A stretch of 64,000 nt of DNA from contig OZ218778.1 of assembly GCA_965112635.1 (NCBI GenBank), forward strand, positions 243,666 to 307,665, in the 5' to 3' direction. The number at the start of each line of letters is the position of its first letter. The first letter of the stretch is position 1. A program made the translations under genes and the position numbers. Source of the DNA: an uncultured bacterium. Its GTDB lineage: Bacteria; Oederibacteriota; Oederibacteriia; Oederibacteriales; Oederibacteriaceae. Under the pieces are notes generated by a model. That model was given only the letters and a program-made list of their open reading frames with translations. It made no database searches and was not told where the DNA came from. Shown here piece by piece: positions 10,268 through 60,090 of this stretch.

Positions 10268-10684
10268 ATGGCAGGTTTAGTAAGATTTGGCGTATCCCTG
10301 GAAAAAGAACTTCTCAAAAAATTTGATCGACTTATCACCCAAAAACACTACACCAACCGCTCCGAAGCCCTGCGCGACCTCATCCGGGAAGAATTGGTCA
10401 AAGAACAATGGAACCAGGGAGACGAAGTGGCCGGCGCCATTACCCTGATCTACAACCACCACCATAGAGACCTGACCGATAAATTGACTAACATTCAACA
10501 TGATTATGGAGACTGCATCCTGTCTTCCCAGCACATCCACCTAGACCACCACCACTGCCTGGAGATCATCGCGGTCAAAGGGTCCCCCAGCCAGGCGCAA
10601 AAACTGGCCGACACCCTCCACGCGGTTAAAGGAGTCATGCATTCCAGCCTCAGCATGTCCACCACCGGCAAAGAAATACATTAA
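10268..10684 (+). CDS. nikR: nickel-responsive transcriptional regulator NikR
   Basis: 138-aa ORF: ribbon-helix-helix N-terminus (RFGVSLEKELLKKFD) plus His/Cys-rich C-terminal domain (HHHRD, HLDHHHC). Confidence 0.9.
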   Translation: MAGLVRFGVSLEKELLKKFDRLITQKHYTNRSEALRDLIREELVKEQWNQGDEVAGAITLIYNHHHRDLTDKLTNIQHDYGDCILSSQHIHLDHHHCLEIIAVKGSPSQAQKLADTLHAVKGVMHSSLSMSTTGKEIH

Positions 10685-10816
10685 ACCGTATTTTCACTCG
10701 TAACTCCCAGTCCATATCTCCTCAAAAATAATGACCCTCAAACTCTTGACAGACCTACTCCTATGTGTTACTTTTCCAAAATTCGTGTTACTAATTATAC
10801 AAGAGGAGGATTTAAG

Positions 10817-13009
10817 ATGATGAAAAGCAATAAAACCAGGTTTTCCTTGGTCGGTTTTATTTTTTGTTCGCTATTGTTGTCCAACCCTAGCTGGGGGCAG
10901 GATGGCGCCAACAGCACCCTGGATGCATTGCGTCATGACAGCAGCCCTGCGGCAGTTACTAAGAGCGCTATACCTGTAAGTGTGACCAAGACCGCTGCAA
11001 CGGAGTCAACCGTGGCCGGTGAAGAAGTAGTGGTTAGAGGCAGGGCTGCCAACTTGCTGGGACTGGCAGACTCGGCCATGCAGGGCAGTGTCAGCCAGGA
11101 AGACCTGAGCCACCGTGCTTTGCTCAGGACGGGAGAAGTTATGGAAGCCGTACCCGGACTGCTCATCACACAGCACAGTGGTGACGGCAAAGCCAACCAG
11201 TATTTCAGCCGAGGTTTTAATCTTGATCACGGCACTGATTTTTCATTCAATGCTGATGATGTTCCTATTAACCTGCCCAGCAATGCCCATGGTCAAGGCT
11301 ATACAGACCTTAATTTCCTCATTCCCGATCTGGTTAAGGAAGTGAACTATTCCAAAGGACTTAATAGCGTTGAATACGGGGAATTTAATACCGCAGGCTC
11401 AGCCAATTTTGTTTATCCCAATACTCTGCCCCAAAATATCGCTTCTCTGACCATGGGAGAATGGGGATATCAGAGAGGGCTTTTGGCCGCATCCAACCCC
11501 TTGGGGTCAGGGAATTTGTTGTACGCCGTGGAAGTTTGCGGTTATGACGGTCCCTGGGATGTCCCGGAAGATAATAAAAAATATAATGGATTGCTTCGCT
11601 ACAGTTATGGAAACTCAGAGAGCAGGTGGGCGATCACGGCATCCCTTTATCAGGCTGCCTGGACCTCCACTGACCAGGTCCCGCAACGAGCGGTGGACGA
11701 GGGTCTGATCGATTTCTGGGGCAGCCTTGATCCGACTGATGGCGGTAAGACAAAACGCTACAGCGTTTGGGCAAGCTGGAATGGCCAATCCCAGGACTGC
11801 CAGTCCATGGTCATGGCCTATGAAACCTATTTTCATATGAATCTTTGGAGCAACTTCACCTATTTTACTGACGATCCTGTTCACGGCGACCAGTTTGAAC
11901 AGGAAGATGAGCGGTATATCACCGGCGCTAAAGCCAGGCAGATATACAACAACACTATCGCCGGGCTGGCCATGAAAAATGAGATCGGCGCGGATTTCCG
12001 CAATGATGACGTGCCCATCCTGGGCCTTTACGATACGGAGGCTCATATTCCGTGGCAAACCGTCCAGCTTAACCAGATGGTCCAAACCAGCGGAGCTCCC
12101 TATGCGGAAAATACCACTTATTGGACACCATGGCTGAGAAGTATTTTGGGATACCGTCACGACTTCTTCCATTTCAAAGTTAACGGTGCTACTCCTGCTA
12201 CCAGCGGAGAGGCTGATGCCAACATAGCCGAACCTAAGGTAGCCCTGGTGCTGCGGCCTTATGAAGGGCCGGTGGAGCTGTACGCCAACTATGGCTGGGG
12301 TTTTCACTCCAATGACGCGCGTATCATTGCGCCGGATGCTTTAAATCAGTTAAGCATTATGGGCAACAATGTGAACACCGCTCCCCTGGTCCACGCGGAG
12401 GGAGAAGAAGTAGGCGCCCGTTTCGGCTGGCAGAATTTATTTGAATCCACGGTATCTTTATGGCGCCTGCATCTGGATTCTGAATTGACTTTTGACGGAG
12501 ACGCGGCCGCTCCCAGTCCCAATGGGCCTTCTACGCGTAATGGGGTGGAATGGTCCAATTCCTTGAGGCCTAAACCCTTTTTCCTGGATTTCGACTACTC
12601 CTGGTGCCAGGCGCGGTTTGATCAGACTGCGTTAGATGATGATGGAGAGCACCCGGGTGAGTATGTGCCGGAGGCTCCGGTAAACATGGCTACAGCCACT
12701 TTAGGCACTGATCCCATAGAAGGCTGGTCTGCGGACTGTCGTTTGCGTTACTTTGGGGCAAGGCCGCTGGTACCGGATAATTCGGTGCAATCCAGCGACC
12801 TGACACTGGTAAGTCTTCGTGTCAGCCGTCAGCTGACGGAAAATCAATCCATTTTCTTCGATATTTTTAATCTTTTTAACCAGCGGGGTTATGATATTTC
12901 TTATTATTACGCCACAAGCGTACAGTCGGGAGCCCCGTCGATCCCGGACATAAACAGTAAACCCGCTGAGCCGCGGTCTTTGCGTGTGACCTGGCAGGAC
13001 CGTTTCTAA
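10817..13009 (+). CDS. TonB-dependent outer-membrane receptor, probably nickel/metal uptake by context
   Basis: signal peptide, plug-domain-like region, ~700-aa barrel ending in F; GAGGAGG RBS before ATG at 10817 (track ORF starts at 10763). Confidence 0.85.
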   Translation: MMKSNKTRFSLVGFIFCSLLLSNPSWGQDGANSTLDALRHDSSPAAVTKSAIPVSVTKTAATESTVAGEEVVVRGRAANLLGLADSAMQGSVSQEDLSHRALLRTGEVMEAVPGLLITQHSGDGKANQYFSRGFNLDHGTDFSFNADDVPINLPSNAHGQGYTDLNFLIPDLVKEVNYSKGLNSVEYGEFNTAGSANFVYPNTLPQNIASLTMGEWGYQRGLLAASNPLGSGNLLYAVEVCGYDGPWDVPEDNKKYNGLLRYSYGNSESRWAITASLYQAAWTSTDQVPQRAVDEGLIDFWGSLDPTDGGKTKRYSVWASWNGQSQDCQSMVMAYETYFHMNLWSNFTYFTDDPVHGDQFEQEDERYITGAKARQIYNNTIAGLAMKNEIGADFRNDDVPILGLYDTEAHIPWQTVQLNQMVQTSGAPYAENTTYWTPWLRSILGYRHDFFHFKVNGATPATSGEADANIAEPKVALVLRPYEGPVELYANYGWGFHSNDARIIAPDALNQLSIMGNNVNTAPLVHAEGEEVGARFGWQNLFESTVSLWRLHLDSELTFDGDAAAPSPNGPSTRNGVEWSNSLRPKPFFLDFDYSWCQARFDQTALDDDGEHPGEYVPEAPVNMATATLGTDPIEGWSADCRLRYFGARPLVPDNSVQSSDLTLVSLRVSRQLTENQSIFFDIFNLFNQRGYDISYYYATSVQSGAPSIPDINSKPAEPRSLRVTWQDRF

Positions 13010-13037
13010 CTAAATAATTAAGGAGGAAATTAACTAG

Positions 13038-13661
13038 ATGCAGACTATTTTGCAAAACTTGGCTCTGATCGGGGACGTCTGGGTCATCTACCTTTTGATC
13101 GCCGCAAGCCTGCTTTCTTTGGCGGTCATGGTGGAAAGATGGATGGTCTTCTCGCGTAACAGGGGAGATGTCACGGTTCTAATGGACGGATTAGGCGAAC
13201 GCCTGGAAAAAAAGGATATCAAGGGGGCTCTGGAATTTACCCGTGGTTTTCCCAATGTGGAGGGCAGGGTTGCCGTGGCGGGACTGGAGCATTTTTCCAA
13301 AGGCGCGGCTTCCGTGGAAGAGGCCATGTCCGCCAGGATCATCCGAGAGCGGAAGCATTTGGGGAAAAAACTGATCATCCTCAGCACGCTGGGCAATAAC
13401 GCGCCCTTTATCGGGTTGTTCGGGACCGTGCTCGGTATCATCAAAGCGTTCAACGACCTTGCGGTCAGCGGAAGCTCGGGGGTGTCCGTGGTCATGGCCG
13501 GCATTTCCTCGGCTCTGATCGCCACGGCATTCGGCATCGCGGTGGCTGTCCCCGCCGTCATAGCCAATAATTATTTCCGCAACCGGCTCAACGAGGTCAG
13601 ATCCAACGCCGAAGAGGTGTCCAAAATGCTTTTGCTTTACATCAAAGCGCAGGGAAAGTAG
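13038..13661 (+). CDS. exbB: MotA/TolQ/ExbB proton channel protein
   Basis: 207-aa membrane protein with ExbB/TolQ-like TM helices; AGGAGG RBS. Confidence 0.85.
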   Translation: MQTILQNLALIGDVWVIYLLIAASLLSLAVMVERWMVFSRNRGDVTVLMDGLGERLEKKDIKGALEFTRGFPNVEGRVAVAGLEHFSKGAASVEEAMSARIIRERKHLGKKLIILSTLGNNAPFIGLFGTVLGIIKAFNDLAVSGSSGVSVVMAGISSALIATAFGIAVAVPAVIANNYFRNRLNEVRSNAEEVSKMLLLYIKAQGK

Positions 13662-13670
13662 GAGGAAGCC

Positions 13671-14069
13671 GTGCAAAACTCTGAAGACGAACAGGAAATA
13701 GTCGGCGGCATCAATATCACGCCCATGGTGGATATCACCCTGGTACTGTTGATCATTTTCATGGTCACGGCGACCTTTATGGCGCAATCAGGCCTGAAAG
13801 TGAACCTTCCCAAGGCGGTCACTACCGAAGCGGCTTTCACCGCCAGCCTGACCGTAACCCTGGATTCCAAGGGTTATCTCTATCTGATGAAGTCACCCAT
13901 AGATGAGAAAGGTCTCAGGGCTGCCCTGCAGCACGAAGTCAGGCTCAATCCCGGCGTGAAAGTTACCATTGCCGCAGACAAGAAACAATATTATGAGCAG
14001 GTCATCCATATCCTGGACCTGGTCAAGCAGGCGGGTATCAGTAAAGTGGCGCTAGCCGCGGAAAGGTAG
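13671..14069 (+). CDS. exbD: ExbD/TolR biopolymer transport protein
   Basis: 132-aa ORF, single TM then periplasmic domain; GTG start with GGAGGA RBS. Confidence 0.85.
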   Translation: MQNSEDEQEIVGGINITPMVDITLVLLIIFMVTATFMAQSGLKVNLPKAVTTEAAFTASLTVTLDSKGYLYLMKSPIDEKGLRAALQHEVRLNPGVKVTIAADKKQYYEQVIHILDLVKQAGISKVALAAER

Positions 14070-14075
14070 GGCGGG

Positions 14076-14684
14076 TTGTTTTCTGTTTCCGGTGTGAATG
14101 GTGGGTGGCAGGACCCTGGAAGAAAAGATTTTTATCTGGGCGCCGTGGTGTCATTGGCCGTGCATCTGGCGCTGCTTGCCATTTTTTACTGTTTATTTTC
14201 CTACCTGAAGAACAGCGCGCCTGTGTCCATGGACCTGGACCTTTCCGTGGCCCCTGCTGTGGTTCCCTTGAGCCGTCCCGTGAAAAAAGAACATGTGGTT
14301 CCGCCCCAAGCCTGGGTGGCGCCTAAAGCTGGGATAGCTCCGACACCCCAAAATGTAAGTGAAACCGCCCAGCCGGTGGAAGAACAATATGTGCCCTCAG
14401 CCGTTACAGCGCTCAAGCCCCGCTGGTTAGACGGGTTTATTACCGATGAGGACTACCCGCCGCAGGCGCGGAGCAAAGGGGAAAAGGGAACGGTCAAGGC
14501 GGAAGTTTTTATTGATGCCTCAGGTATGGTCAAGGATCTGAAAATAGTCCAGGAAAGTTATCCTGCCTTGAATGAGGTGGTTTTGCACAAATTAAAGGAT
14601 GCCAAGTTTACGCCAGCCCGTGATGCCTCGGGAAAACCTGTGCCCTGCAAGATGTTGCTGCCCATTAAATTTGAATTGTATTAA
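14076..14684 (+). CDS. tonB: energy transducer TonB
   Basis: N-terminal TM, Pro-rich linker, TonB-like C-terminal domain; TTG/GTG start, exact start uncertain. Confidence 0.7.
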   Translation: MFSVSGVNGGWQDPGRKDFYLGAVVSLAVHLALLAIFYCLFSYLKNSAPVSMDLDLSVAPAVVPLSRPVKKEHVVPPQAWVAPKAGIAPTPQNVSETAQPVEEQYVPSAVTALKPRWLDGFITDEDYPPQARSKGEKGTVKAEVFIDASGMVKDLKIVQESYPALNEVVLHKLKDAKFTPARDASGKPVPCKMLLPIKFELY

Positions 14685-14766
14685 GATAGTTCTTGATTAT
14701 GTTCAGGAAAAAGCTATTACCAAAACAGTGAAGCCATCCTGCTGACTTTATGAAAGGATAAATTTT

Positions 14767-15786
14767 ATGCACATTCCTGACGGATATTTAGGACCGACCA
14801 CCTGCGGATTTTTTTATGTGGTCATGGTGCCGATCTGGATGACCGCTTCCCGCATGGTCAAAAAGACCCTCAAGGCCGGTCAGATCCCTTTTCTGGCCAT
14901 TGGCGCGGCTTTTAGCTTTGTCATTATGATGTTCAATGTCCCCATCCCCGCTGGCTCTACCGGCCACGCGGTAGGCGGCGCCTTGATCGCCATCCTGCTC
15001 GGACCCTGGGGCGCCTGTCTGACCGTTTCCGTAGCCTTGGTCATCCAGGCCTTTTTGTTCGGAGATGGCGGCCTGACCGCCATCGGCGCCAACTGCTTTA
15101 ATATGGCCGTCGTACTGCCCTTTTCTGCGTACCTTATTTACCGGCTCTTGTCCGGCTCCGCCCAAAAAAGTCCGACCAGAAATGTCTGGGCCGCGGGTAT
15201 CGCCGGCTACCTTTCCATCAATATCGCCGCTCTGTGCGCCGGTGTGGAGTTCGGCTTACAGCCTTTGCTCTACCATACCGCGGATGGACAGGCTCTTTAC
15301 TGCCCGTTCGGCTTGAGCGTTGCAGTGCCGGCCATGCTGGGCGGACACTTGCTGGTTTTTGGGTGGATAGAAGGCTTGGTCACCGCTCTGCTGGTCAAAT
15401 ATCTCCAACAGCACTCTCCTGAAATGCTCGCTCGCCCCGCCCTAAAAACTTCCACCAAATTATGGGCCTGTCTTGGCATCCTTGCGGTGCTGACCCCGTT
15501 AGGACTGCTCATCCCCGCCTGGCTCCACGGAGGAGACGCCTGGGGTGAGTGGGCGCCTGAAGAAATACAAAAAATCGCCGGCTATGTTCCCCAGGGCCTG
15601 CAAAAACTTTCCGCGCTCTGGAATGCCCCTTTGGCTGACTATGGTTTTAAAAGCTGGGAAGGAAAAGGATTGGGATACTCAAGCCTAGCCTATATAATAT
15701 CAGCCGTTCTAGGCGCAGCCCTGATCGCTTTTTGCGTCTGGTTATTGTTCAAATATCTCTTCCGGAAAGGCTTTTCCAAAAAATGA
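14767..15786 (+). CDS. nikMN: ECF-type Ni/Co transporter substrate-capture protein, fused NikMN (CbiMN-like)
   Basis: starts MHIPDGYL (CbiM/NikM hallmark); 339 aa with extra C-terminal TM region consistent with an N-component fusion. Confidence 0.85.
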   Translation: MHIPDGYLGPTTCGFFYVVMVPIWMTASRMVKKTLKAGQIPFLAIGAAFSFVIMMFNVPIPAGSTGHAVGGALIAILLGPWGACLTVSVALVIQAFLFGDGGLTAIGANCFNMAVVLPFSAYLIYRLLSGSAQKSPTRNVWAAGIAGYLSINIAALCAGVEFGLQPLLYHTADGQALYCPFGLSVAVPAMLGGHLLVFGWIEGLVTALLVKYLQQHSPEMLARPALKTSTKLWACLGILAVLTPLGLLIPAWLHGGDAWGEWAPEEIQKIAGYVPQGLQKLSALWNAPLADYGFKSWEGKGLGYSSLAYIISAVLGAALIAFCVWLLFKYLFRKGFSKK

Positions 15787-16589
15787 ATTTTGTGGAACGC
15801 ACTATCCTGGCTGCTCTTTCCCTGCTGAAAAATTCCATGTTCGCCGAGGATATCGCCCGCCAAAAAGGGCTCTTACAAACACTGGACCCACGGGTCAAGG
15901 CTGTTTCTTTGCTGGCCTTGATCGTGCTGGTCCTGTTCACCAAAAACTTATGGGTACTGGCTTGTATTTATGGTCTATGTCTGGTCCTGGCTATGCTATC
16001 GAGGATCCGCCTGCTGTTTTTCCTGGAGCGCACCTGGATCTTTATCCCCCTGTTTTCCCTGCTCATCGCCATACCTGCTCTTTTTAGTTTTGTATCACCG
16101 GGCCGGCCTTTGTTCTCCTGGGGGATATGGACCATCACCAGCCAGGGATTAGGCAGCGCCGTCATCTTTATCAGCCGCGTCATCACCTCGGTGTCCCTAG
16201 CCGTGCTTTTGAACCTGACCACCCGTCACCTGGAACTGCTCAAGGTCCTTAGGATATTCGGGATCCCGCAAATGTTCGTCATGATCCTGTCCATGAGCTA
16301 CCGTTATATTTTTCTTTTTGTGGAGATCATGGAAAACACCCACCGGGCCGTGCAGAGCCGCGTCGGCTCGGCCATTCATTATAAAAAAGGTCAGCACCTG
16401 GTGGCCTGGAGCATGGCTGGCCTGTGGAGCCGTTCAGTCGGCCTGCAGGAACAGGTGCACCACGCCATGCTCTCCCGCGGATTTCAAGGCGAGCCGGTCC
16501 TCCTGCACCGCATGAGCACAAGGTTCAGGGACTGGGCCTGGCTGGCCTGCGTTCTCGTCCTGGTAGTCTGTTTGTGGGGAGCGTCCTGA
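15783..16589 (+). CDS. nikQ: ECF transporter transmembrane (T) component NikQ/CbiQ
   Basis: polytopic membrane protein; ATG overlaps nikMN stop (ATGA). Confidence 0.8.
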   Translation: MNFVERTILAALSLLKNSMFAEDIARQKGLLQTLDPRVKAVSLLALIVLVLFTKNLWVLACIYGLCLVLAMLSRIRLLFFLERTWIFIPLFSLLIAIPALFSFVSPGRPLFSWGIWTITSQGLGSAVIFISRVITSVSLAVLLNLTTRHLELLKVLRIFGIPQMFVMILSMSYRYIFLFVEIMENTHRAVQSRVGSAIHYKKGQHLVAWSMAGLWSRSVGLQEQVHHAMLSRGFQGEPVLLHRMSTRFRDWAWLACVLVLVVCLWGAS

Positions 16590-17401
16590 TGAAACCTATC
16601 TTTGAGTTTCAAAAAGTCAGCTATGCTTACCTGGGTAAATTCCCGGCCCTGCGGGACATCACTCTAACTATCCCGGCTGGAAAAATGGTCACCCTGGTCG
16701 GCGCCAACGGTTCGGGCAAATCCACGCTCCTGCAGATGATGGACGGTCTTTTGTTCCCGGACAGCGGGACCATAGTTTTTGATGGCAGACAGCTGGCCAG
16801 CGCTGAACTGGAAAAACAGGACTTTTCCAAGACCTTTAGACAAAAGGTAGGACTGGTCTTCCAGAACCCCGACATCCAGCTTTTTTGTCCTACGGTCCGC
16901 GAGGATATTATTTTTGGTCCGCTCCAGCTGGGGATAGACGAAAAAATAGTGATGAACCGATTGGAAGAGTTGGCCGTAGCCCTTAAACTCACGCCTCTCC
17001 TGGACCGTGCCCCGCATCAGTTGAGCATCGGCGAAAAACGCAAGGTGGCCATAGCCTCCACCCTGGCCATAGACCCTGAGGTTTTGCTTTTGGATGAACC
17101 CACAGCCGGCCTGGACCCCATGACCACGGCTTCCATCCTGGAGATCCTGCTCACAGCCAATCAGTCAGGCAAGACCATTATTACAGCCACCCACGACCTG
17201 CATATTTTAGAGGAGATCGCGGACACAGTGTTCGTTTTCGGGCAGGATAAGACCATCGTCGCGGAAAGCACCCCCGAATCCATACTCAAGGATACGGACC
17301 TCCTGCAAGCGAACAACCTGGTGCATTTTCATCCGCACAGCCATAAAGGCAGGATGCACCAGCATCCCCACCAGCACCCGGACCACCACGAAGGAAGCTA
17401 A
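16589..17401 (+). CDS. nikO: ECF transporter ATPase NikO/CbiO with His-rich C-terminal tail
   Basis: Walker A GANGSGKST, signature LSIGEKRK, Walker B LLLDEPTAGLD; tail HFHPHSHKGRMHQHPHQHPDHHEGS; start overlaps nikQ stop. Confidence 0.85.
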   Translation: MKPIFEFQKVSYAYLGKFPALRDITLTIPAGKMVTLVGANGSGKSTLLQMMDGLLFPDSGTIVFDGRQLASAELEKQDFSKTFRQKVGLVFQNPDIQLFCPTVREDIIFGPLQLGIDEKIVMNRLEELAVALKLTPLLDRAPHQLSIGEKRKVAIASTLAIDPEVLLLDEPTAGLDPMTTASILEILLTANQSGKTIITATHDLHILEEIADTVFVFGQDKTIVAESTPESILKDTDLLQANNLVHFHPHSHKGRMHQHPHQHPDHHEGS

Positions 17402-24134: not shown

Positions 24135-25280
24135 TTAGCAGTTGAATATTTTCTTTTTTTGCTTCAGGTAATATTCATAGTTTTTGAGCGGGACAGTAGG
24201 CGGGCAGCGGTGGTCAAACCCGGGCACAAACCCTCCCTGCTTGACCGTAGCTTCCAGATATCTGAGCTCGTCGTCAATATCCTTGAACGAGCCCTGTATC
24301 TTGATCTTGTCCACTCCGCCCCACAGCAGGATCTGGTCCCCATATTTAGCCCGGAGCTTGACCGGGTCCGTGCCGCAGGCGCGCTCCATGGGGAACATGC
24401 AGTTGTATCCCGCCTCCAGGAAAATGGGCACCAACAGGTTGATGTCACCGTCGCAGTCCGTATAGATCACGTCGATCCCGTATTTGTGGAGCAGGCGGCT
24501 GATCTTCTTGTACTGGGGCAGGACATACTGGCGGTACATGGCCGGCGAGATCATGGGCCCGTTCTTAAAAGCCACATCCTCCCAGCCGTGGGCAAAATCG
24601 AACTGGACTTCCTTGAGAGCCGGTTCGATCAGGGCGCAGATAAAATCACCCATATACTCGATCATCTCGGCCATAAGCTCCGGCTGGTCGTAAAAAGCCA
24701 CGGTGATGTTCTCGAAACCCATCCAGTCACGGGGCTTGCCGATCATAGAGCCAATATCTATGCCCACGGGTACTTTGCGGTTGATCCAGCCCTCCACGTC
24801 CTTTTTCCAGGTCTTCGGATATCGCCCGGGGTCATGCGGGTCCAGCCTGGTCTTTTTGAACTCTTTCCAGTCCGCTGGGCCTTTGATGGGGAATTCGATG
24901 AAATGAGGGATGGAGGACATGCCCTTCTTTCTATTGATCTCGCATGTGACGCCGTTAGCGTCGATCATGATGACATGGCTTTCGCTTTTTTCCAGTATCC
25001 TTTCCTCAAAGTAGGGGTAAACATTCGTTTGTATCCCGTCCCCTTCGCAGCTTTCGATCCCGAAATACTGGTAGGCGGTCGCCTCGTCCTTGACCCATGC
25101 AGGCAGGCCCTGCTGGTGCCAGACATCCAGGGTCTCTTCCCAATACCCGAACTCAAAATTGGGGATCCTGTCCACGCTTTGATAATGCATGGTGCGCTGG
25201 AAGCGCTCCCGCGGGGACATGCTCTTATTCTTTTTGGGAGCCTGTTTTTTATCCGCTATTTTTTTAGCCGCTTTGACCAT
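24135..25280 (-). CDS. uroporphyrinogen decarboxylase (URO-D)/MtaA-family protein with Lys-rich N-terminal extension
   Basis: URO-D-like fold; ATG at 25280 has GGAGGGG RBS; alternative starts at 25364 and 25220. Confidence 0.75.
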   Translation of the reverse strand: MVKAAKKIADKKQAPKKNKSMSPRERFQRTMHYQSVDRIPNFEFGYWEETLDVWHQQGLPAWVKDEATAYQYFGIESCEGDGIQTNVYPYFEERILEKSESHVIMIDANGVTCEINRKKGMSSIPHFIEFPIKGPADWKEFKKTRLDPHDPGRYPKTWKKDVEGWINRKVPVGIDIGSMIGKPRDWMGFENITVAFYDQPELMAEMIEYMGDFICALIEPALKEVQFDFAHGWEDVAFKNGPMISPAMYRQYVLPQYKKISRLLHKYGIDVIYTDCDGDINLLVPIFLEAGYNCMFPMERACGTDPVKLRAKYGDQILLWGGVDKIKIQGSFKDIDDELRYLEATVKQGGFVPGFDHRCPPTVPLKNYEYYLKQKKKIFNC

Positions 25281-25388
25281 GGATCCCCTCCACAACGCGT
25301 AAGGAACGATGAAGTAATGATTGACCCTCAATAATAGAACAGGGGTACCCAATTGTAAATACAACGGATACCCCTGATCCTTATTAAA

Positions 25389-28296: not shown

Positions 28297-28563
28297 TTAG
28301 GAGACGGCAGGCGGAGCCTTGTTGCTGATCAGTTCCTTGGCTGGAGTGGGTAAAAAATCAGGGATGGGATTGGGTAAGAATGAAATGAATTCGAACTGGG
28401 GAGTGATGACCACGGCCTCTACCGTGCTGACGAATACGCATTGGCCCCAGTTGCACGCTAAACAATGGTCATCGGGTTCATCCAAGGGATGGTTATGGAG
28501 GAATGGGATAGCTGAAAACCACAAACACAGAACGATAAATAATATTTTTTTGGTCAGTGTCAT
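28297..28563 (-). CDS. small secreted/membrane protein with HNH..DxxDH and CxxC motif (possible metal-binding)
   Basis: 88-aa ORF from ATG 28563; signal-like MTLTKKILFIVLCLWFSAIPFL then HNHPLDEPDDHCLACNW. Confidence 0.4.
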   Translation of the reverse strand: MTLTKKILFIVLCLWFSAIPFLHNHPLDEPDDHCLACNWGQCVFVSTVEAVVITPQFEFISFLPNPIPDFLPTPAKELISNKAPPAVS

Positions 28564-28620: not shown

Positions 28621-29244
28621 TTACTCGTAGCAACCACAGTCTTTGCTGCTAGCGTTCTCCCAGCCTTCCCGGCCGATGAGCACGGCAATGCCCAGGCTGG
28701 TGACCGAGTCAAACCAGGCCAGCCCGGTCGCGGTAAAGAGAAACGACCCGGCCAAAAGCAATCCGGACAACCACATGCAGGATAAGGTGCAAAAAGCATC
28801 GGCCTCCAGGGCCGGACTGCGCAATCCCTGGGCCGCCTGCTTTTTATAATGATAGAGGACAAACATCACTCCCAGGGAGATGACGGCAATGATCATGCCG
28901 GGCAAACCGGTCTTGGGCCTGAACTTATCGCTCCACTCCAGGACCACTCCGGCCGCCAGCAGGACGGACAATAATAAAAGGAACCAGCCGATGATGCGGT
29001 GGGCCAGGTGTTCGGCCCCGGCTGTCCGTGTTTTTTTGGATTCCCTGCGGCTGAAACACCATAGCACCACGACCGCCGAGGCGGTCTCGATAAGGCTGTC
29101 GAACCCGAACCCCAAAAGGGATAGGGACTCCGCGGCCAGGCCGAACCACAGGCTCACCAAAAACTCGGCCAGGTTGTAAAAGACCGAAGCCCAGGCCAAA
29201 ACAAGGGCCAGCTTTACCCACTGGCGCCGTGGTACTTTTTTCAT
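28621..29244 (-). CDS. cation-diffusion-facilitator-like membrane protein, TM domain only
   Basis: ~207-aa polytopic protein with CDF-like TM motif SLSLLGFGFDSLIE and C-terminal CGC; AAGGAG RBS before ATG 29244. Confidence 0.5.
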   Translation of the reverse strand: MKKVPRRQWVKLALVLAWASVFYNLAEFLVSLWFGLAAESLSLLGFGFDSLIETASAVVVLWCFSRRESKKTRTAGAEHLAHRIIGWFLLLLSVLLAAGVVLEWSDKFRPKTGLPGMIIAVISLGVMFVLYHYKKQAAQGLRSPALEADAFCTLSCMWLSGLLLAGSFLFTATGLAWFDSVTSLGIAVLIGREGWENASSKDCGCYE

Positions 29245-29255
29245 ACACACTCCTT

Positions 29256-29299
29256 AAAAAAGAAAAGCAGCCTTCGCTTAGATAAGAAGACTGCTTTTC
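29256..29299 (-). terminator. candidate rho-independent terminator after the small ORF (9-bp stem, 20-nt loop, T6 on minus strand)
   Basis: GAAAAGCAG...CTGCTTTTC inverted repeat followed on the minus strand by TTTTTT. Confidence 0.4.
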
Positions 29300-29316
29300 T
29301 CAGAATCCCTAATAGA

Positions 29317-29388
29317 CTAACAGCATTTCCCCTTGTGAACCTTACCACAACCAGGGCACTTCTTTGCTTTTTTTGTCTTTTTCGCCAT
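29317..29388 (-). CDS. unannotated 23-aa Lys/Cys-rich small ORF (MAKKTKKAKKCPGCGKVHKGKCC)
   Basis: ATG 7 nt after AGGAGGG, below the ORF-track size cutoff, followed by the terminator hairpin; 50 nt downstream of the URO-D gene. Confidence 0.3.
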   Translation of the reverse strand: MAKKTKKAKKCPGCGKVHKGKCC

Positions 29389-29438
29389 ATGCCCTCCTTT
29401 CTTTACAGCATTATACTCCAAAAACATTTCAAGTAAAT

Positions 29439-30485
29439 CTACCCTGCTTTTCTAGCCTCGTCATACATGGCCACGATGTTCTCCACCGGCGTGATGGACT
29501 GGATATTATGGCAGGGCGATAGGATATACCCCCCTCCCTCACCCAAAATCCTGATATTATCCCGGACCTCCTGCCTGACTTCGGCAACCGTTCCAAAGGG
29601 CAGGGTCTGCTGGTTGTCCATGGCTCCGTGGAAGCACAGCTTGGCGCCGAAGGTTTTCTTGAGCACCTGCCGGTCCATCCCTGCGCAGCGCCACTGGATG
29701 GGGTTCAAAATATCCACCCCGATCTCGACCAGGTCCGGGATGATGGCTAGGATGGCCCCGTCGCTGTGGGTCATGACGTAAGCCCCGTGCTTGTGCACCA
29801 ACTCCATCATTTTTTTCATCCTCGGTTTTAAAAATTTCCTGAAAATAGCCGGGCTGTACAAAAGGGATTCCTGGGTCCCCAGGTCTTCGGCGATATAGGC
29901 AATATCAATGTTCCCCTTGGCAGCAATGAGGGTCTTTTCGTTCAGTTCGTAATGGATCTGGAAGATCCGCTCCAGGGCCGCTTCCACCATCTCCGGATTC
30001 TCGTAAAAGTCGGACATGGCCTGTTCCATGCCCCGCATATAGCTATAAAGCCACATCGGCTCAAAGTAACTTCCCTGGATGGGTCTGCCCTTGTATTCCA
30101 GGCATTTGTCCAGGACATTTTCAAAGGTCCACCATTTTGGATCCGGCCAGGGATAATCTTCCATCTCCTTGACGCTGGTGATCTTGGCCAGGGGGTTGCG
30201 GGCTATCTCATCATAAGTTCCGGCGCCGTTGGCATAGTTGACCTTCCGCCACTCCATGCCCCAGATATCCGCCTTGCCCCGTTCCTTGGCATGGGGGTCG
30301 TGCAAATCCCCGCCCACCCCCACAACGCGGTCTATGTTCAGTTTGGCCCAAAGTTCATCCGGGTTCTTGCATTTCAATTCTTGGAGAAGCTTATCGGTGA
30401 TCTCCGGTGTTCCCCAGTAATCCGTCGGGATATGGTCCACGCCTTTCTTGGCTATGGTCGCTCTCCAGCGTTCCTTAGAAGTCAT
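29439..30485 (-). CDS. uroporphyrinogen decarboxylase (URO-D)/MtaA-family protein
   Basis: 348-aa ORF with URO-D-like fold. Confidence 0.8.
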   Translation of the reverse strand: MTSKERWRATIAKKGVDHIPTDYWGTPEITDKLLQELKCKNPDELWAKLNIDRVVGVGGDLHDPHAKERGKADIWGMEWRKVNYANGAGTYDEIARNPLAKITSVKEMEDYPWPDPKWWTFENVLDKCLEYKGRPIQGSYFEPMWLYSYMRGMEQAMSDFYENPEMVEAALERIFQIHYELNEKTLIAAKGNIDIAYIAEDLGTQESLLYSPAIFRKFLKPRMKKMMELVHKHGAYVMTHSDGAILAIIPDLVEIGVDILNPIQWRCAGMDRQVLKKTFGAKLCFHGAMDNQQTLPFGTVAEVRQEVRDNIRILGEGGGYILSPCHNIQSITPVENIVAMYDEARKAG

Positions 30486-33448: not shown

Positions 33449-34204
33449 ATGACGGAAAAAACCCATGTTTCCTTTGAAATCAAAGGGGTTTATAAAAAAA
33501 TGGGCCTCAACCAGGCCCTGGACGGAATCACCACGCTTTTTGACGCCTCCACCCTGCACGGCCTTATCGGCCCGGATGGGGCCGGTAAAACCACTCTCCT
33601 GCGCTGCCTCATCGGCCTGCTGAAACCCAATAGCGGGGAGATCCTTTACTTCCAGGAGCAAAGCCAGGTCCCCTTTTCTAACGTCAGGGACGGCCTGGCC
33701 TACATGCCCCAGCAGCAAAGCCTGTACCCGGACCTTTCCATTGACGAACATTTGGAATTTTTCCGAGACCTCTACCAGATCCCGCCGGAAATTTACTCAC
33801 AGCGTCGCGATGAACTCCTCCAGTTGGCTCGTTTGGCCCAGTTCAAGGACCGTCCGGCCGGACAGCTCTCCGGCGGCATGTATAAAAAGCTCGGTCTCAT
33901 GTGCGCCCTGCTCCGCTCCCCCTCGGCCGTACTGCTGGACGAGCCCACCAACGGCGTGGACCCCATCAGCCGCCGGGAGTTTTGGGATATGCTCTACCGT
34001 CTGGTGGGACAGGGTGTCCTGGTCCTCATTTCCACGGCCTACATGGACGAGGCCGAACGCTGCGGCAAGGTCCATATCCTGTCACATGGGAAACTTTTGA
34101 CCAGCGGTGAGCCTGAAAATGTCCTTACCGCGGAAAAGGTCCGCAACTTCGAGGAGCTTTTTATGAAATATGACCGGCTTGAGACAGCTTTAAAGGAGAG
34201 ATGA
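33449..34204 (+). CDS. ABC transporter ATP-binding protein
   Basis: Walker A GPDGAGKTT, signature LSGGMYKK, Walker B LLDEPT. Confidence 0.85.
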   Translation: MTEKTHVSFEIKGVYKKMGLNQALDGITTLFDASTLHGLIGPDGAGKTTLLRCLIGLLKPNSGEILYFQEQSQVPFSNVRDGLAYMPQQQSLYPDLSIDEHLEFFRDLYQIPPEIYSQRRDELLQLARLAQFKDRPAGQLSGGMYKKLGLMCALLRSPSAVLLDEPTNGVDPISRREFWDMLYRLVGQGVLVLISTAYMDEAERCGKVHILSHGKLLTSGEPENVLTAEKVRNFEELFMKYDRLETALKER

Positions 34205-35140
34205 ACATGTCTAGCGTCTTGAACACTCCCAGCGTTGAGGTCAACGGCCTTACGGTCAAATTCGGTAAATTCACGGCTGTGGACAACATCTCCTTCAGGG
34301 TCGCCCAGGGAGAGATTTTTGGGTTTTTGGGGGCTAACGGCGCCGGCAAGACCACGACCATCCGTGTCTTGTGCGGACTCCTCATGCCCACCAGCGGTAG
34401 CGTGTCCGTGGCCGGCCTGGAGGTCAAGCAAAGCCTGCAGGCAATCAAACAAAAGGTCGGCTACATGTCCCAAAAATTTACCCTGTACCAGGACATGACC
34501 GTGTGGAGAAAACCTGGCCTTTACCGCGGCCCTGCGCAAAATTCCCCAGGAAGTCTTTCAACAGCGTAAAAAAGAACTGCTGGAGTTCATTGGCTTCCAT
34601 GAGCCGGAAAAAACTTTTGTCAAAGACCTGGCCGGGGGCCTCAAACAGGAAGTGTCCCTGACCGCGGCCATGCTGCACGACCCTGAGATCGTGTTTTTGG
34701 ACGAACCCACAGCCGGGGTGACCCCGGCCAGCCGCCAGCGCTTTTGGGACCTCATCCGCCAACTCTCCGCCAAGGGCAAAACCGTTTTTGTGACCACCCA
34801 TTACATGGATGAAGCTGAAAACTGCGGCCGTATCGCTCTCATGCGGGCCGGCCAGATCATAGCCCTGGATACCCCGGAAAACCTTAAAAACACGCGTTTT
34901 CCTTATCCTCTTTATGAGATCACCCCCAAACCAGGGGCAGCCCCGGACTGGCTTGACCGTCTGCAAAAGGACAAGCGCCTGGATTTGTCACCTTACGGTC
35001 TGCGTTACCATTGCGCAGTCAAAGATAAAGCAGCTTGGCCGGAAATTTCCACATTTTTAAGCGAGCAAGCCGCTTCCCATCCTATCAAACCGTCCCTGGA
35101 GGATGTTTTTATCCAGCTTGTGGAAGGAGTGGACCGATGA
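34201..35140 (+). pseudogene. second ABC transporter ATP-binding protein, frame broken near 34507-34513
   Basis: Walker A GANGAGKTT in first ORF; Walker B VFLDEPT in ORF 34652-35140; removing one base at tgg-a-gaaaac restores TVWENLAFTAAL. Confidence 0.7.
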
Positions 35141-39456: not shown

Positions 39457-40878
39457 CTATTTCCCCTGGTTTTTGGGGCCTCGGTGCTGGCTGTGGCTGA
39501 AACTATGACCTTGCCCCTGACCGTAGTGGCTCTGGGGCCTGTGGCTATCTCCGTGGTGGCCCTGGGGCCTGGAGTGGTGCGGATGGTGGGGATGGCCTCC
39601 TCCTAGATAGCCGGTAGGCGGTTTTTCATTATAGTCAAAGTCGGGCAGGAGCACGGCCGGCAGTTTTTTGTTCACCAGTTTCTCGATATCCCGAAGCATC
39701 AGGTTGTCCTGGGGTGTGACAAATATAAAAGCGTCGCCTTCGGTATCTTTGCGGGCGGTCCGGCCGATACGATGGATATAATCCTCGGCGGCCTGCGGCA
39801 CATCGTAGTTGATGACATGAGTGATGTCCGTGAAATCAATACCCCGGGCCGCAATATCGGTCGCGACCAGGACCCTGATATCGCCCTTTTTGAAACGATG
39901 GAGCACTTCCCGGCGGTGGGTCTGGCTCTTGTCGCCGTGGATGACCTCGGAATCCACCCCGTGCCGCCTGAGCTTTTGCACCAGGGAGTCCGCCGAATGC
40001 TTGCTCCGGACAAAGACCAGGACCGAGTAGAGCGCCTGCTGTTCCAGCAGTTTGATCAGGAGCTTGGTCTTGAGATGCCGCTCCACCGGGAACATGGCCT
40101 GGCGGATGCCGCTGGGCGGGGCCTCCCGGCCCACCCGCACGGTCACCGGGTCTTTGAGGACCACATGGGTCAGTTCTATGATCTCCTGCGGCATGGTGGC
40201 TGAGTAGAGCAGGGTCTGCCTTTTGGCCGGGACATAGCTCAGGATGCGCTTGATATCCGGCATGAATCCCATGTCCAGCATCCGGTCCGCCTCGTCCAGC
40301 ACCAAAACCTCCAGATTGTTGAACTTCGCGTACCCCCGGCGCAGGTGGTCCATAAGCCGGCCCGGTGTGGCCGCGATGATGTCAAAACCGGTGCGCAAGG
40401 CGTTCTCCTGGGCATCAAAACCCACCCCGCCGTAGACCGCCGCGCACCGAATCTTGGTGTGGTAACCTAAGGCCGTAGCCTGCTCATCTATCTGGGCAGC
40501 CAGCTCCCGGGTGGGCGTCAGGATGAGGACCCGGATGCCTGTCCCGCGGTTGTGCAGGATGCGGTGCATCAGGGGGATGAGGAACGCCGCGGTCTTGCCT
40601 GTGCCGGTCTGGGCCGTGGCGATGAGGTCATGGCCTTTTAAAACCTCAGGGATGGCCTGTTCCTGGACAGGCGTTGGTCGGGTATATCCCATATCTTTGA
40701 TGCCGCGGAGCAGGTCTGGATGCAGGTTAAATTTAGCGAAAATGGGCGTTTCCCCCTTTTCATAGATTAAATATCTCTCCAAGTATAGCCTTTTAATCTG
40801 CCTATAACTATCAAATATTGCGGAAGCGGCTGTCTTCTTTATTTGGTGCCGGATTGTTATAATTACTCCGCTGGTCAT
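39457..40878 (-). CDS. DEAD-box ATP-dependent RNA helicase with His/Gly/Gln-rich C-terminal tail
   Basis: Q-motif PTPVQ, Walker A AQTGTGKT, DEAD, SAT, HRIGRTAR; true start probably downstream of 40878. Confidence 0.85.
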   Translation of the reverse strand: MTSGVIITIRHQIKKTAASAIFDSYRQIKRLYLERYLIYEKGETPIFAKFNLHPDLLRGIKDMGYTRPTPVQEQAIPEVLKGHDLIATAQTGTGKTAAFLIPLMHRILHNRGTGIRVLILTPTRELAAQIDEQATALGYHTKIRCAAVYGGVGFDAQENALRTGFDIIAATPGRLMDHLRRGYAKFNNLEVLVLDEADRMLDMGFMPDIKRILSYVPAKRQTLLYSATMPQEIIELTHVVLKDPVTVRVGREAPPSGIRQAMFPVERHLKTKLLIKLLEQQALYSVLVFVRSKHSADSLVQKLRRHGVDSEVIHGDKSQTHRREVLHRFKKGDIRVLVATDIAARGIDFTDITHVINYDVPQAAEDYIHRIGRTARKDTEGDAFIFVTPQDNLMLRDIEKLVNKKLPAVLLPDFDYNEKPPTGYLGGGHPHHPHHSRPQGHHGDSHRPQSHYGQGQGHSFSHSQHRGPKNQGK

Positions 40879-60015: not shown

Positions 60016-60090
60016 CCGCAGCGAAGCGGAGGAGTAACAAACATAATAAACTCTTCCATACAAATACCATGCCTGTGAAGGCGTGGATGT

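Follow-up and report, generated by a model that had tools for sequence, protein, structure and literature searches.

A 23-codon open reading frame (ORF) was analysed on the minus strand of a 64,000-nt stretch of DNA from an uncultured bacterium of the Oederibacteriaceae (assembly GCA_965112635.1, contig OZ218778.1, forward-strand positions 243,666 to 307,665). This whole stretch is referred to below as the window, and all coordinates are those of the window unless another locus is named. The ORF lies between a gene of the URO-D (uroporphyrinogen decarboxylase) family and a transporter gene of the CDF (cation diffusion facilitator) family, and is accompanied by a promoter-like site, a ribosome-binding site and a strong intrinsic terminator. 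The signals of a translated mini-gene are present and are jointly unlikely to have arisen by chance. The explanation favored here, held tentatively and at somewhat less than an even chance, is that the ORF is a genuine mini-gene, situated close behind its promoter, for a cationic peptide that binds metal through thiolates, and that its terminator would limit read-through into the CDF/Znu gene cluster that follows. The features of the locus, all on the minus strand, are given here from upstream to downstream:

29439 to 30485, minus strand: URO-D-family (MtaA-like) gene, PF01208, upstream of the small ORF and without a terminator of its own before it.
29410 to 29437, minus strand: sigma-70-like promoter site, with a -35 element TTTACT (29437-29432), a 16-nt spacer and a -10 element TATAAT (29415-29410).
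29392 to 29398, minus strand: Shine-Dalgarno sequence AGGAGGG, 3 nt (CAT) before the ATG at 29388.
29317 to 29388, minus strand: 23-codon ORF with its TAG stop, product MAKKTKKAKKCPGCGKVHKGKCC, non-random in composition; no homologs were found.
29256 to 29301, minus strand: intrinsic terminator (inverted repeat I1), with a 16-bp stem (29301-29286 / 29275-29260), a 10-nt loop and a T6 run (29261-29256).
29244 to 29255, minus strand: CDF ribosome-binding site AAGGAG (29255-29250) and start codon ATG 29244, directly abutting the T-run.
28621 to 29244, minus strand: CDF gene of 207 aa (PF01545, TIGR01297), the first long gene downstream of the small ORF.

The reading frame and its expression signals

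The ORF starts with ATG at 29388-29386 and stops with TAG at 29319-29317. Its product contains nine Lys, five Cys (22% of the residues), three Gly and one His. Residues 1-10 are MAKKTKKAKK and the last 13 residues are CPGCGKVHKGKCC, with a spacing of potential ligands of C11-X2-C14-X3-H18-X3-C22-C23. Reading of the strand bore out the initial annotation, which had described a Lys/Cys-rich 23-aa peptide with a CxxC, one His and a terminal CC; the statement that the ORF was unannotated also held, as the public gene calls for the identical contig have no gene at this position. With an alternative in-frame ATG at 29427 the product would have 36 aa; no public record of this form was found. Because this ATG has no ribosome-binding site and lies within the promoter-like element, credence is given to the 23-aa form. 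On the same strand, exactly 50 nt separate the small ORF from the end of the URO-D-family gene upstream, at 29439, in agreement with the distance first reported. The small ORF and the CDF gene are in the same frame and 144 nt apart; a read-through fusion of the two was ruled out by three intervening in-frame stops.

The promoter-like site, TTTACT-16-TATAAT, matches the consensus at 10 of 12 positions and predicts a transcription start near 29403. Four of the nine sites of this quality in the window are intergenic, and all four stand upstream of a start codon in the correct orientation. Between AGGAGGG and the ATG there are 3 nt, or 4 nt when counted from AGGAGG, and not 7 nt as was originally given; the figure of 7 nt roughly matches a count from the middle of GGAGG to the first base of the start codon. 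For long genes of the window the distance from AGGAGG to the start is 4-8 nt, with 4 nt in two cases, so the spacing at the small ORF is workable in this organism. The initiation region and ORF body have no significant RNA structure (z = -0.7 to -1.0), as would be expected of an accessible initiation region but not of a structured riboswitch. One hairpin inside the ORF, CCCUGGUUGUGG...CACAAGGGG, was evaluated as a structured RNA and discarded as not significant (z = -0.69).

The stem-loop with T6 that had been noted after the ORF was verified as a 16-bp hairpin that is strong in comparison to shuffled sequence: its energy is -22.5 kcal/mol (z = -3.76), and none of 200 shuffles was equally stable. 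It has the form of a Rho-independent terminator, a stable stem-loop followed by U6 on the transcribed strand, and lies 15 nt from the stop codon of the small ORF and ~140 nt from that of the URO-D-family gene. The window was scanned for canonical terminators under strict criteria (perfect stem of at least 7 bp, at least 4 GC pairs and at least 6 T in 8), and the hairpin of the small ORF was the sole intergenic match on a coding strand within the 64 kb. All other matches in the window were within genes, save one near 60067-60086 on the strand opposite to its neighboring genes; on the basis of this whole-window scan the organism seems to make little use of canonical intrinsic terminators.

An exact 10-nt repeat, AGAAAAGCAG, was observed on the minus strand in the last codons of the URO-D-family gene (29444-29453) and in the 5' arm of the terminator (29291-29300). 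Both copies are able to pair with the 3' arm, which has a third, imperfect partner inside the small ORF (29373-29359). The repeat may be a chance occurrence in A-rich sequence.

Frequency of the signal combination in shuffled sequence

The window has one instance of the full combination, namely a promoter-like site with at least 9 of 12 matches, a ribosome-binding site, a start codon, an ORF of 10-70 codons and a terminator no more than 40 nt away, compared to 0.0175 instances per block-shuffled window; when the terminator is left out, the expectation is 0.755 per shuffled window. Under intergenic base composition the probability of at least five Cys in 22 open codons is ~9e-4, and at least nine Lys were seen in none of 30,193 simulated ORFs. 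Six intergenic ORFs of 10-80 codons with a ribosome-binding-like site were found in the window, and the 23-codon ORF is the only one of these in which an ATG, a GGAGG-class site and a terminator are combined.

Position of the terminator relative to the CDF gene

The CDF start at ATG 29244 is supported by the public gene call and by N-terminal alignment with homologs. As the T-run directly abuts the CDF ribosome-binding site, no room is left for a separate promoter between them, and by this geometry the CDF gene must be transcribed only through the terminator hairpin. The same abutment indicates that the hairpin is not a plain end-of-operon terminator. The neighborhood is rich in metal-transport genes: following the CDF gene are a gene for a 365-aa protein with no Pfam match, ZnuA (PF01297) and an ABC-3 permease (PF00950), and a NikR/CbiMQO cluster is located nearby. 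The matches of CDF and ZnuA, to PF01545 and PF01297 respectively, substantiate the transporter neighbors named in the initial annotation, with the ABC-3 match in addition.

The peptide as a possible metal binder

The core CPGCG is a knuckle of the rubredoxin/zinc-ribbon type, CPxCG. In a sequence search of the PDB the only resemblances to the CPGCGKVH core were metal knuckles, both of them weak (per-site E of 0.4 or worse). These were KCPECGK of designed C2H2 fingers (summed E of 2e-4, with each site at E > 40) and KRRCPHCGQVHPG, the C-terminal rubredoxin-like site of 3-hydroxyanthranilate dioxygenase (E = 0.4). It would be chemically reasonable for the peptide to bind a thiophilic metal, be it in a single chain or between two chains bridged via their CPxCG pairs; such binding is purely a prediction. 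A small metal-binding peptide, as proposed at the outset, is the best guess for the product, given the mini-gene signals, the CPxCG knuckle and the metal-transport neighbors; the zinc-ribbon part of that proposal is not supported, as the peptide has a single knuckle and no Pfam match at E<=10.

The literature provided general comparators only. No autonomous zinc module smaller than the retroviral-type CCHC knuckle, which binds nucleic acid, is known. The peptide resembles this type (zf-CCHC, PF00098; C-X2-C-X4-H-X4-C) in its ligand order of Cys-Cys-His-Cys over ~13 residues, in its basic flank and in the Gly-Lys that follows the second Cys. It differs in its spacing of C-X2-C-X3-H-X3-C (X4 to the last Cys), which is one residue short, and with no Pfam match at E<=10 it falls outside the family.

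Haloarchaeal CPxCG proteins are ~40-70 aa in length and carry two C(P)xCG motifs, which supply four Cys. The small zinc-finger proteins of this kind (Brz of Halobacterium salinarum; the Haloferax small proteome, PMC10117724) are like the peptide in being very small, basic and CPxCG-built, and in being encoded by short, often overlooked ORFs beside the genes that they influence. The peptide, of 23 aa with one CPGCG, a His and a terminal CC, is from a bacterial host and has no homology to them, and with a single CPGCG and no sequence homologs found it was not assigned to this family.

The bacterial metallothioneins SmtA/BmtA are proteins of 50-60 aa with ~9 Cys and a Zn4 cluster. High Cys content together with a His, and linkage to metal-homeostasis genes, are shared with the peptide, whereas its five Cys in 23 aa, its extreme positive charge and the lack of a Pfam or NCBIfam match set it apart from metallothioneins. 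MntS of E. coli is a 42-aa soluble protein that acts with the Mn exporter MntP and is thought to modulate the metal pool or the exporter. It is a precedent for a tiny soluble protein encoded beside metal-homeostasis genes, with a role of the kind proposed for the peptide. It has no sequence similarity to the peptide, is not Cys/Lys-rich, and is associated with another metal and another transporter family.

Proposed function of the mini-gene

Under the favored explanation, the mini-gene would be specific to its lineage and would be transcribed both from its own sigma-70-type promoter and by read-through from the terminator-less URO-D-family gene. Translation would begin at ATG 29388 by means of the near-perfect ribosome-binding site, and the transcript would mostly end at the strong terminator 15 nt past the stop codon. 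The predicted product, of 23 residues and highly cationic owing to its nine Lys, would present in its C-terminal half the CPxCG knuckle, the His and the terminal Cys-Cys, and could bind a thiophilic divalent metal (Zn, Ni, Co or Cd). The metal site may be formed within one chain (Cys3His or Cys4) or by two peptides bridged through their CPxCG knuckles. The peptide might then serve as a small cytoplasmic metal buffer, or as a hand-off partner for the products of the metal-transport genes that follow. Given the position of the CDF ribosome-binding site right after the T-run, the CDF gene, and probably the genes behind it, would be transcribed only through the terminator, and the hairpin would then act as an internal attenuator that yields much peptide mRNA and little transporter mRNA.

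If translated, the ORF would encode a peptide that ranks among the smallest bacterial proteins for which a metal site is predicted. Its cistron would come first after the promoter in a metal-transport cluster, ahead of a CDF without the usual cytoplasmic regulatory domain, and the peptide would be a further case among the few micro-proteins that act with transporters. A synthetic 23-mer would also make a very small and chemically tractable model of a single-knuckle metal site. At present the ORF is a well-defined experimental candidate in a poorly sampled lineage, an orphan and not yet a discovery.

Database searches and the possibility of a chance reading frame

A number of results weigh against the mini-gene. 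The statistical criteria were chosen after the example had been seen, and the tests on shuffled sequence are for this reason taken as moderate, not decisive, support. Promoter-like sites of 10/12 quality are not enriched in the window (nine, versus 7.3 +/- 2.6 in shuffles). Intergenic AGGAGG occurs at ~10 sites in the window, most of them ahead of long genes, and three are unexplained, including that of the small ORF; by our own estimate ~3 would arise by chance in 6.2 kb of intergenic sequence on both strands, so this ribosome-binding site alone proves little. An adjacent pair of terminal Cys is also awkward as ligands of a single tetrahedral site.

Searches for relatives were likewise negative. 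Neither the 23-aa nor the 36-aa form matched a Pfam family at E<=10, and the 23-aa peptide had no NCBIfam match at E<=1. The sole NCBIfam match of the 36-aa form was YacG (E = 0.047, 13 bits versus a cutoff of 79), and neither form was recognised by a model of the small ribosomal proteins (bL36 etc.). A word-indexed search of 5.8 billion proteins, queried with a tandem duplicate of the peptide, gave no match at E<=10, and an exhaustive phmmer search of the 36-aa ORF against 1.84 billion representatives gave none. The codon pattern C-P-x-C-G-x2-H-x3-C-C-stop was matched 28 times in metagenome contigs; on inspection all of these were judged to be chance matches, because they lacked an N-terminus rich in Met/Lys, were interrupted by stops, or had Trp where the stop should be. 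One match in viral contigs was also attributed to chance, and tblastn against plasmids gave no match.

Conserved homologs downstream of URO-D-family genes had been suggested as a check on the ORF, and were found at none of the loci fetched. A similar ORF was present at 0 of 80 genome loci of URO-D relatives; inspection by eye of the two nearest relatives among them (identities of 66%, partial, and 57%) showed different downstream genes and no similar ORF. The best non-self match of the URO-D protein in a large database is 63% identical. Three further URO-D homolog loci (L117-L119) also have no similar ORF, among them that of a paralog from the same genome (57% identical; L117 10001-11044), where a Na/Ca exchanger directly follows. 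Relatives of the CDF are at most 55% identical and stand in tight operons without such an ORF (contexts L082-L085, L114 and L115), and where DNA was available for CDF-homolog loci the ORF was present at 0 of 4. No stretch homologous to the small-ORF region was detected in any fetched locus. With no homolog found and none at the URO-D or CDF loci, there is no sign of purifying selection. The closest relatives of the flanking genes have 55-66% protein identity and a different gene order, and the lack of any relative above 66% points to sparse sampling of the lineage. The only other public assembly (L081), from the same strain, shows no difference in this region and hence offers no population variation. 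In a distant lineage, a CDF homolog of 44% identity has a small ORF 67 nt upstream (L083 4745-4933; also L084 and L085). That ORF is a called gene of 55-62 aa, acidic and with five Cys (…LDCEALCEAF…FCN…TCEMYESCK); its sequence is unrelated to MAKKTKKAKKCPGCGKVHKGKCC, and it is noted as another small Cys-containing ORF ahead of a short CDF.

The ORF could also be fortuitous. The hairpin would then mark the end of a URO-D transcript with a long 3' untranslated region, and the hexamer, the ATG and the open frame would have arisen by chance in an A/G-rich spacer, with no meaningful translation. Absence of conservation at every locus searched, the number of AGGAGG sites, the equal frequency of promoter-like sites in shuffles and the terminator-less expectation are all in keeping with this explanation, and Lys richness would follow from A-rich sequence in any frame. 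It accounts poorly for the five in-frame TGY codons (p ~1e-3), for an ATG at working distance from a 7-nt ribosome-binding site and for the rarity of the joint configuration in shuffles. The geometry of the hairpin is also unfavorable to it: 15 nt from stop codon to terminator is typical of the end of a gene, ~140 nt from the URO-D stop is long, and the abutting CDF ribosome-binding site is not what a plain end-of-operon terminator would have beside it. A chance ORF is rated as unlikely, yet as the nearest competitor to the mini-gene.

Regulatory leader or small RNA

A second explanation retains translation of the ORF and gives the peptide itself no role. The promoter, small ORF and terminator would constitute the 5' leader of a CDF-led operon, and the act of translation, through Lys/Cys codons or by TnaC-like sensing of the nascent chain, would set termination and read-through or the translation of CDF. 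The layout is that of a standard attenuator: a short ORF lies between a promoter-like site and a terminator that precedes a structural gene, with no promoter room between the terminator and the next ribosome-binding site. Leader-peptide attenuators (trpL, hisL, pyrL and TnaC, of 24 aa) share this order, and TnaC is of similar size. In addition, a weak helix of AUUCU (29306-29302) with GGAGU (29253-29249) could mask the CDF ribosome-binding site and is within reach of a ribosome terminating at the UAG; the AGAAAAGCAG segment of the 5' arm is repeated at 29453-29444, and the in-ORF segment AAAAAAGCAAAGAAG can pair with the 3' arm and U-tail.

What is missing from the leader arrangement is the switch. 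An antiterminator was looked for and not found: the 5' arm of the terminator has no complementary segment upstream, and each of the alternative pairings draws on the 3' arm, for which the local hairpin should be the stronger competitor. In the known attenuators the terminator has an antiterminator alternative; here none was seen, and the ORF stops 15 nt short of the hairpin without overlapping it. Judged by the ribosome footprint, this stop codon is too far from the stem, and the hairpin should stay intact when a ribosome terminates or stalls there. Minimum-energy and centroid folds contain no significant leader structure besides the terminator. The ORF has nine Lys and five Cys codons, and the downstream genes encode metal transporters, not Lys or Cys biosynthesis; it is not obvious how the supply of these amino acids would be tied to an operon for metal transport. 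Such a leader is missing from CDF homologs elsewhere. Classical attenuation was rejected for want of an antiterminator, and a riboswitch or other known RNA was rejected by Rfam 15, which gave no match at gathering score anywhere in the window, the NiCo/czcD riboswitch included. A regulatory leader ORF as a whole is regarded as unlikely, somewhat more so than a chance ORF.

The same promoter-like site and terminator could alternatively bound a small regulatory RNA of ~145 nt (~29403 to 29256), with an ORF that is incidental or makes the RNA dual-function. The strong terminator with its U-tail and the single-stranded A-rich body are in favor of this, and the rarity of canonical terminators elsewhere in the window is as expected if this one serves a special short transcript. 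The body, however, carries a ribosome-binding site and an ATG instead of a C/U-rich seed that would pair with ribosome-binding sites, it has no significant structure beyond the terminator, and homologous sequence was present in no fetched locus. Besides the absence of Rfam matches at the gathering threshold, nothing credible was seen at E<=10, where 29100-29600 gave two spurious eukaryotic families only. A small RNA is considered improbable.

Trans-acting sensor or modified peptide

In a more elaborate version of the mini-gene, one to which very little probability is given, the peptide would be a trans-acting metal sensor of its own operon, by binding of the hairpin or by docking on CDF. In the first case the knuckle, loaded with Zn, Ni or Co, together with the poly-Lys tail would bind the 16-bp hairpin and bring about metal-dependent read-through into CDF/Znu, much as nucleocapsid zinc knuckles bind stem-loops. 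In the second, the peptide would dock on the CDF and supply a metal-sensing module in trans. Canonical CDFs carry this module in cis; the CDF of the window has no cytoplasmic C-terminal domain and ends in CGCYE. If true, either route would be a previously undescribed form of metal-regulated control by a 23-residue protein. The family to which this CDF belongs has ~200-230 aa, no cytoplasmic C-terminal domain and, in many members, a CxC or His tail at the C-terminus. A specific link between the peptide and the CDF C-terminal CGC was rejected, as CxC/His tails are common in lineages of the CDF family that have no small ORF.

The initial annotation had also proposed a modified-peptide precursor, an explanation now scarcely credible. 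By this account the Cys thiols would be modified (e.g. S-methylated) by the MtaA-like URO-D-family enzyme, or the peptide would be a natural-product precursor of the ribosomally synthesized and post-translationally modified peptide (RiPP) type. The sole PDB relative of the URO-D-family gene is indeed a zinc enzyme, the zinc-dependent thiol methyltransferase MtaA (4AY7, E = 1.5e-6), in line with the earlier remark on zinc enzymes among URO-D relatives, and a peptide with five thiols is encoded in the same orientation 50 nt downstream. At two places in the alignment the gene at 29439-30485 departs from MtaA, with H-S-D instead of H-I-C and C-H instead of G-C, so that one Cys of MtaA is replaced by Asp. 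This Cys of the H-x-C motif is part of the MtaA zinc site. Neither a leader/core architecture in the peptide nor a radical-SAM, YcaO, lanthipeptide or other recognised peptide-modifying gene nearby was found; the neighbors are URO-D-family, CDF, ZnuA, ABC-3 and TetR genes. No precursor-enzyme co-occurrence was seen at the fetched URO-D loci (identity up to 66%) or at the paralog in the same genome.

Other observations in the window

At least three URO-D-family paralogs are present in the genome. Two of them (24135-25364 and 29439-30485) flank the metal-transport cluster, the first being the second URO-D paralog encountered further downstream of the small ORF, together with a GH2 beta-galactosidase that one of the flanking paralogs adjoins. 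The third (57% identical) is elsewhere, by the Na/Ca exchanger. Both in the window and in P0002, a distant relative (55% identity), the CDF gene shares a cluster with ZnuA and an ABC-3 permease, and an ABC ATPase is not adjacent; in other lineages the short CDF adjoins ketoacyl-synthase and cyclase-like genes.

The 390-nt gap between the CDF gene and the 365-aa gene contains an uncalled ORF of ~88 aa (28297-28563, minus strand). It has a hydrophobic N-terminus, MTLTKKILFIVLCLWFSAIPF, followed by HNHPLDEPDDHCLACNWGQC, a His/Cys motif with the potential to bind metal. It has no Pfam match at E<=10 and no strong ribosome-binding site, and is absent from the public gene calls.

A Ni/Co uptake island is located at 10268-17401 and consists of NikR, a TonB-dependent receptor, ExbB, ExbD, TonB, CbiM with the ORF next to it, and an ABC ATPase that has a His-rich tail (...HFHPHSHKGRMHQHPHQHPDHHEGS). 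The gene after this ATPase encodes a membrane protein of 353 aa that resembles the ACR3 arsenite carrier, a putative name. A long His-rich tail is also present at the end of the ORF at 39457-40878, which was named a DEAD-box-like helicase on account of its sequence motifs.

At ~34504 a one-base difference within a C-run sets the window apart from L081, the Logan assembly of the same strain. The ABC ATPase encoded there is intact in L081 (310 aa), and the copy in the window is split into plus-strand ORFs at 34201-34569 and 34652-35140, which may reflect either an assembly error or a real frameshift.

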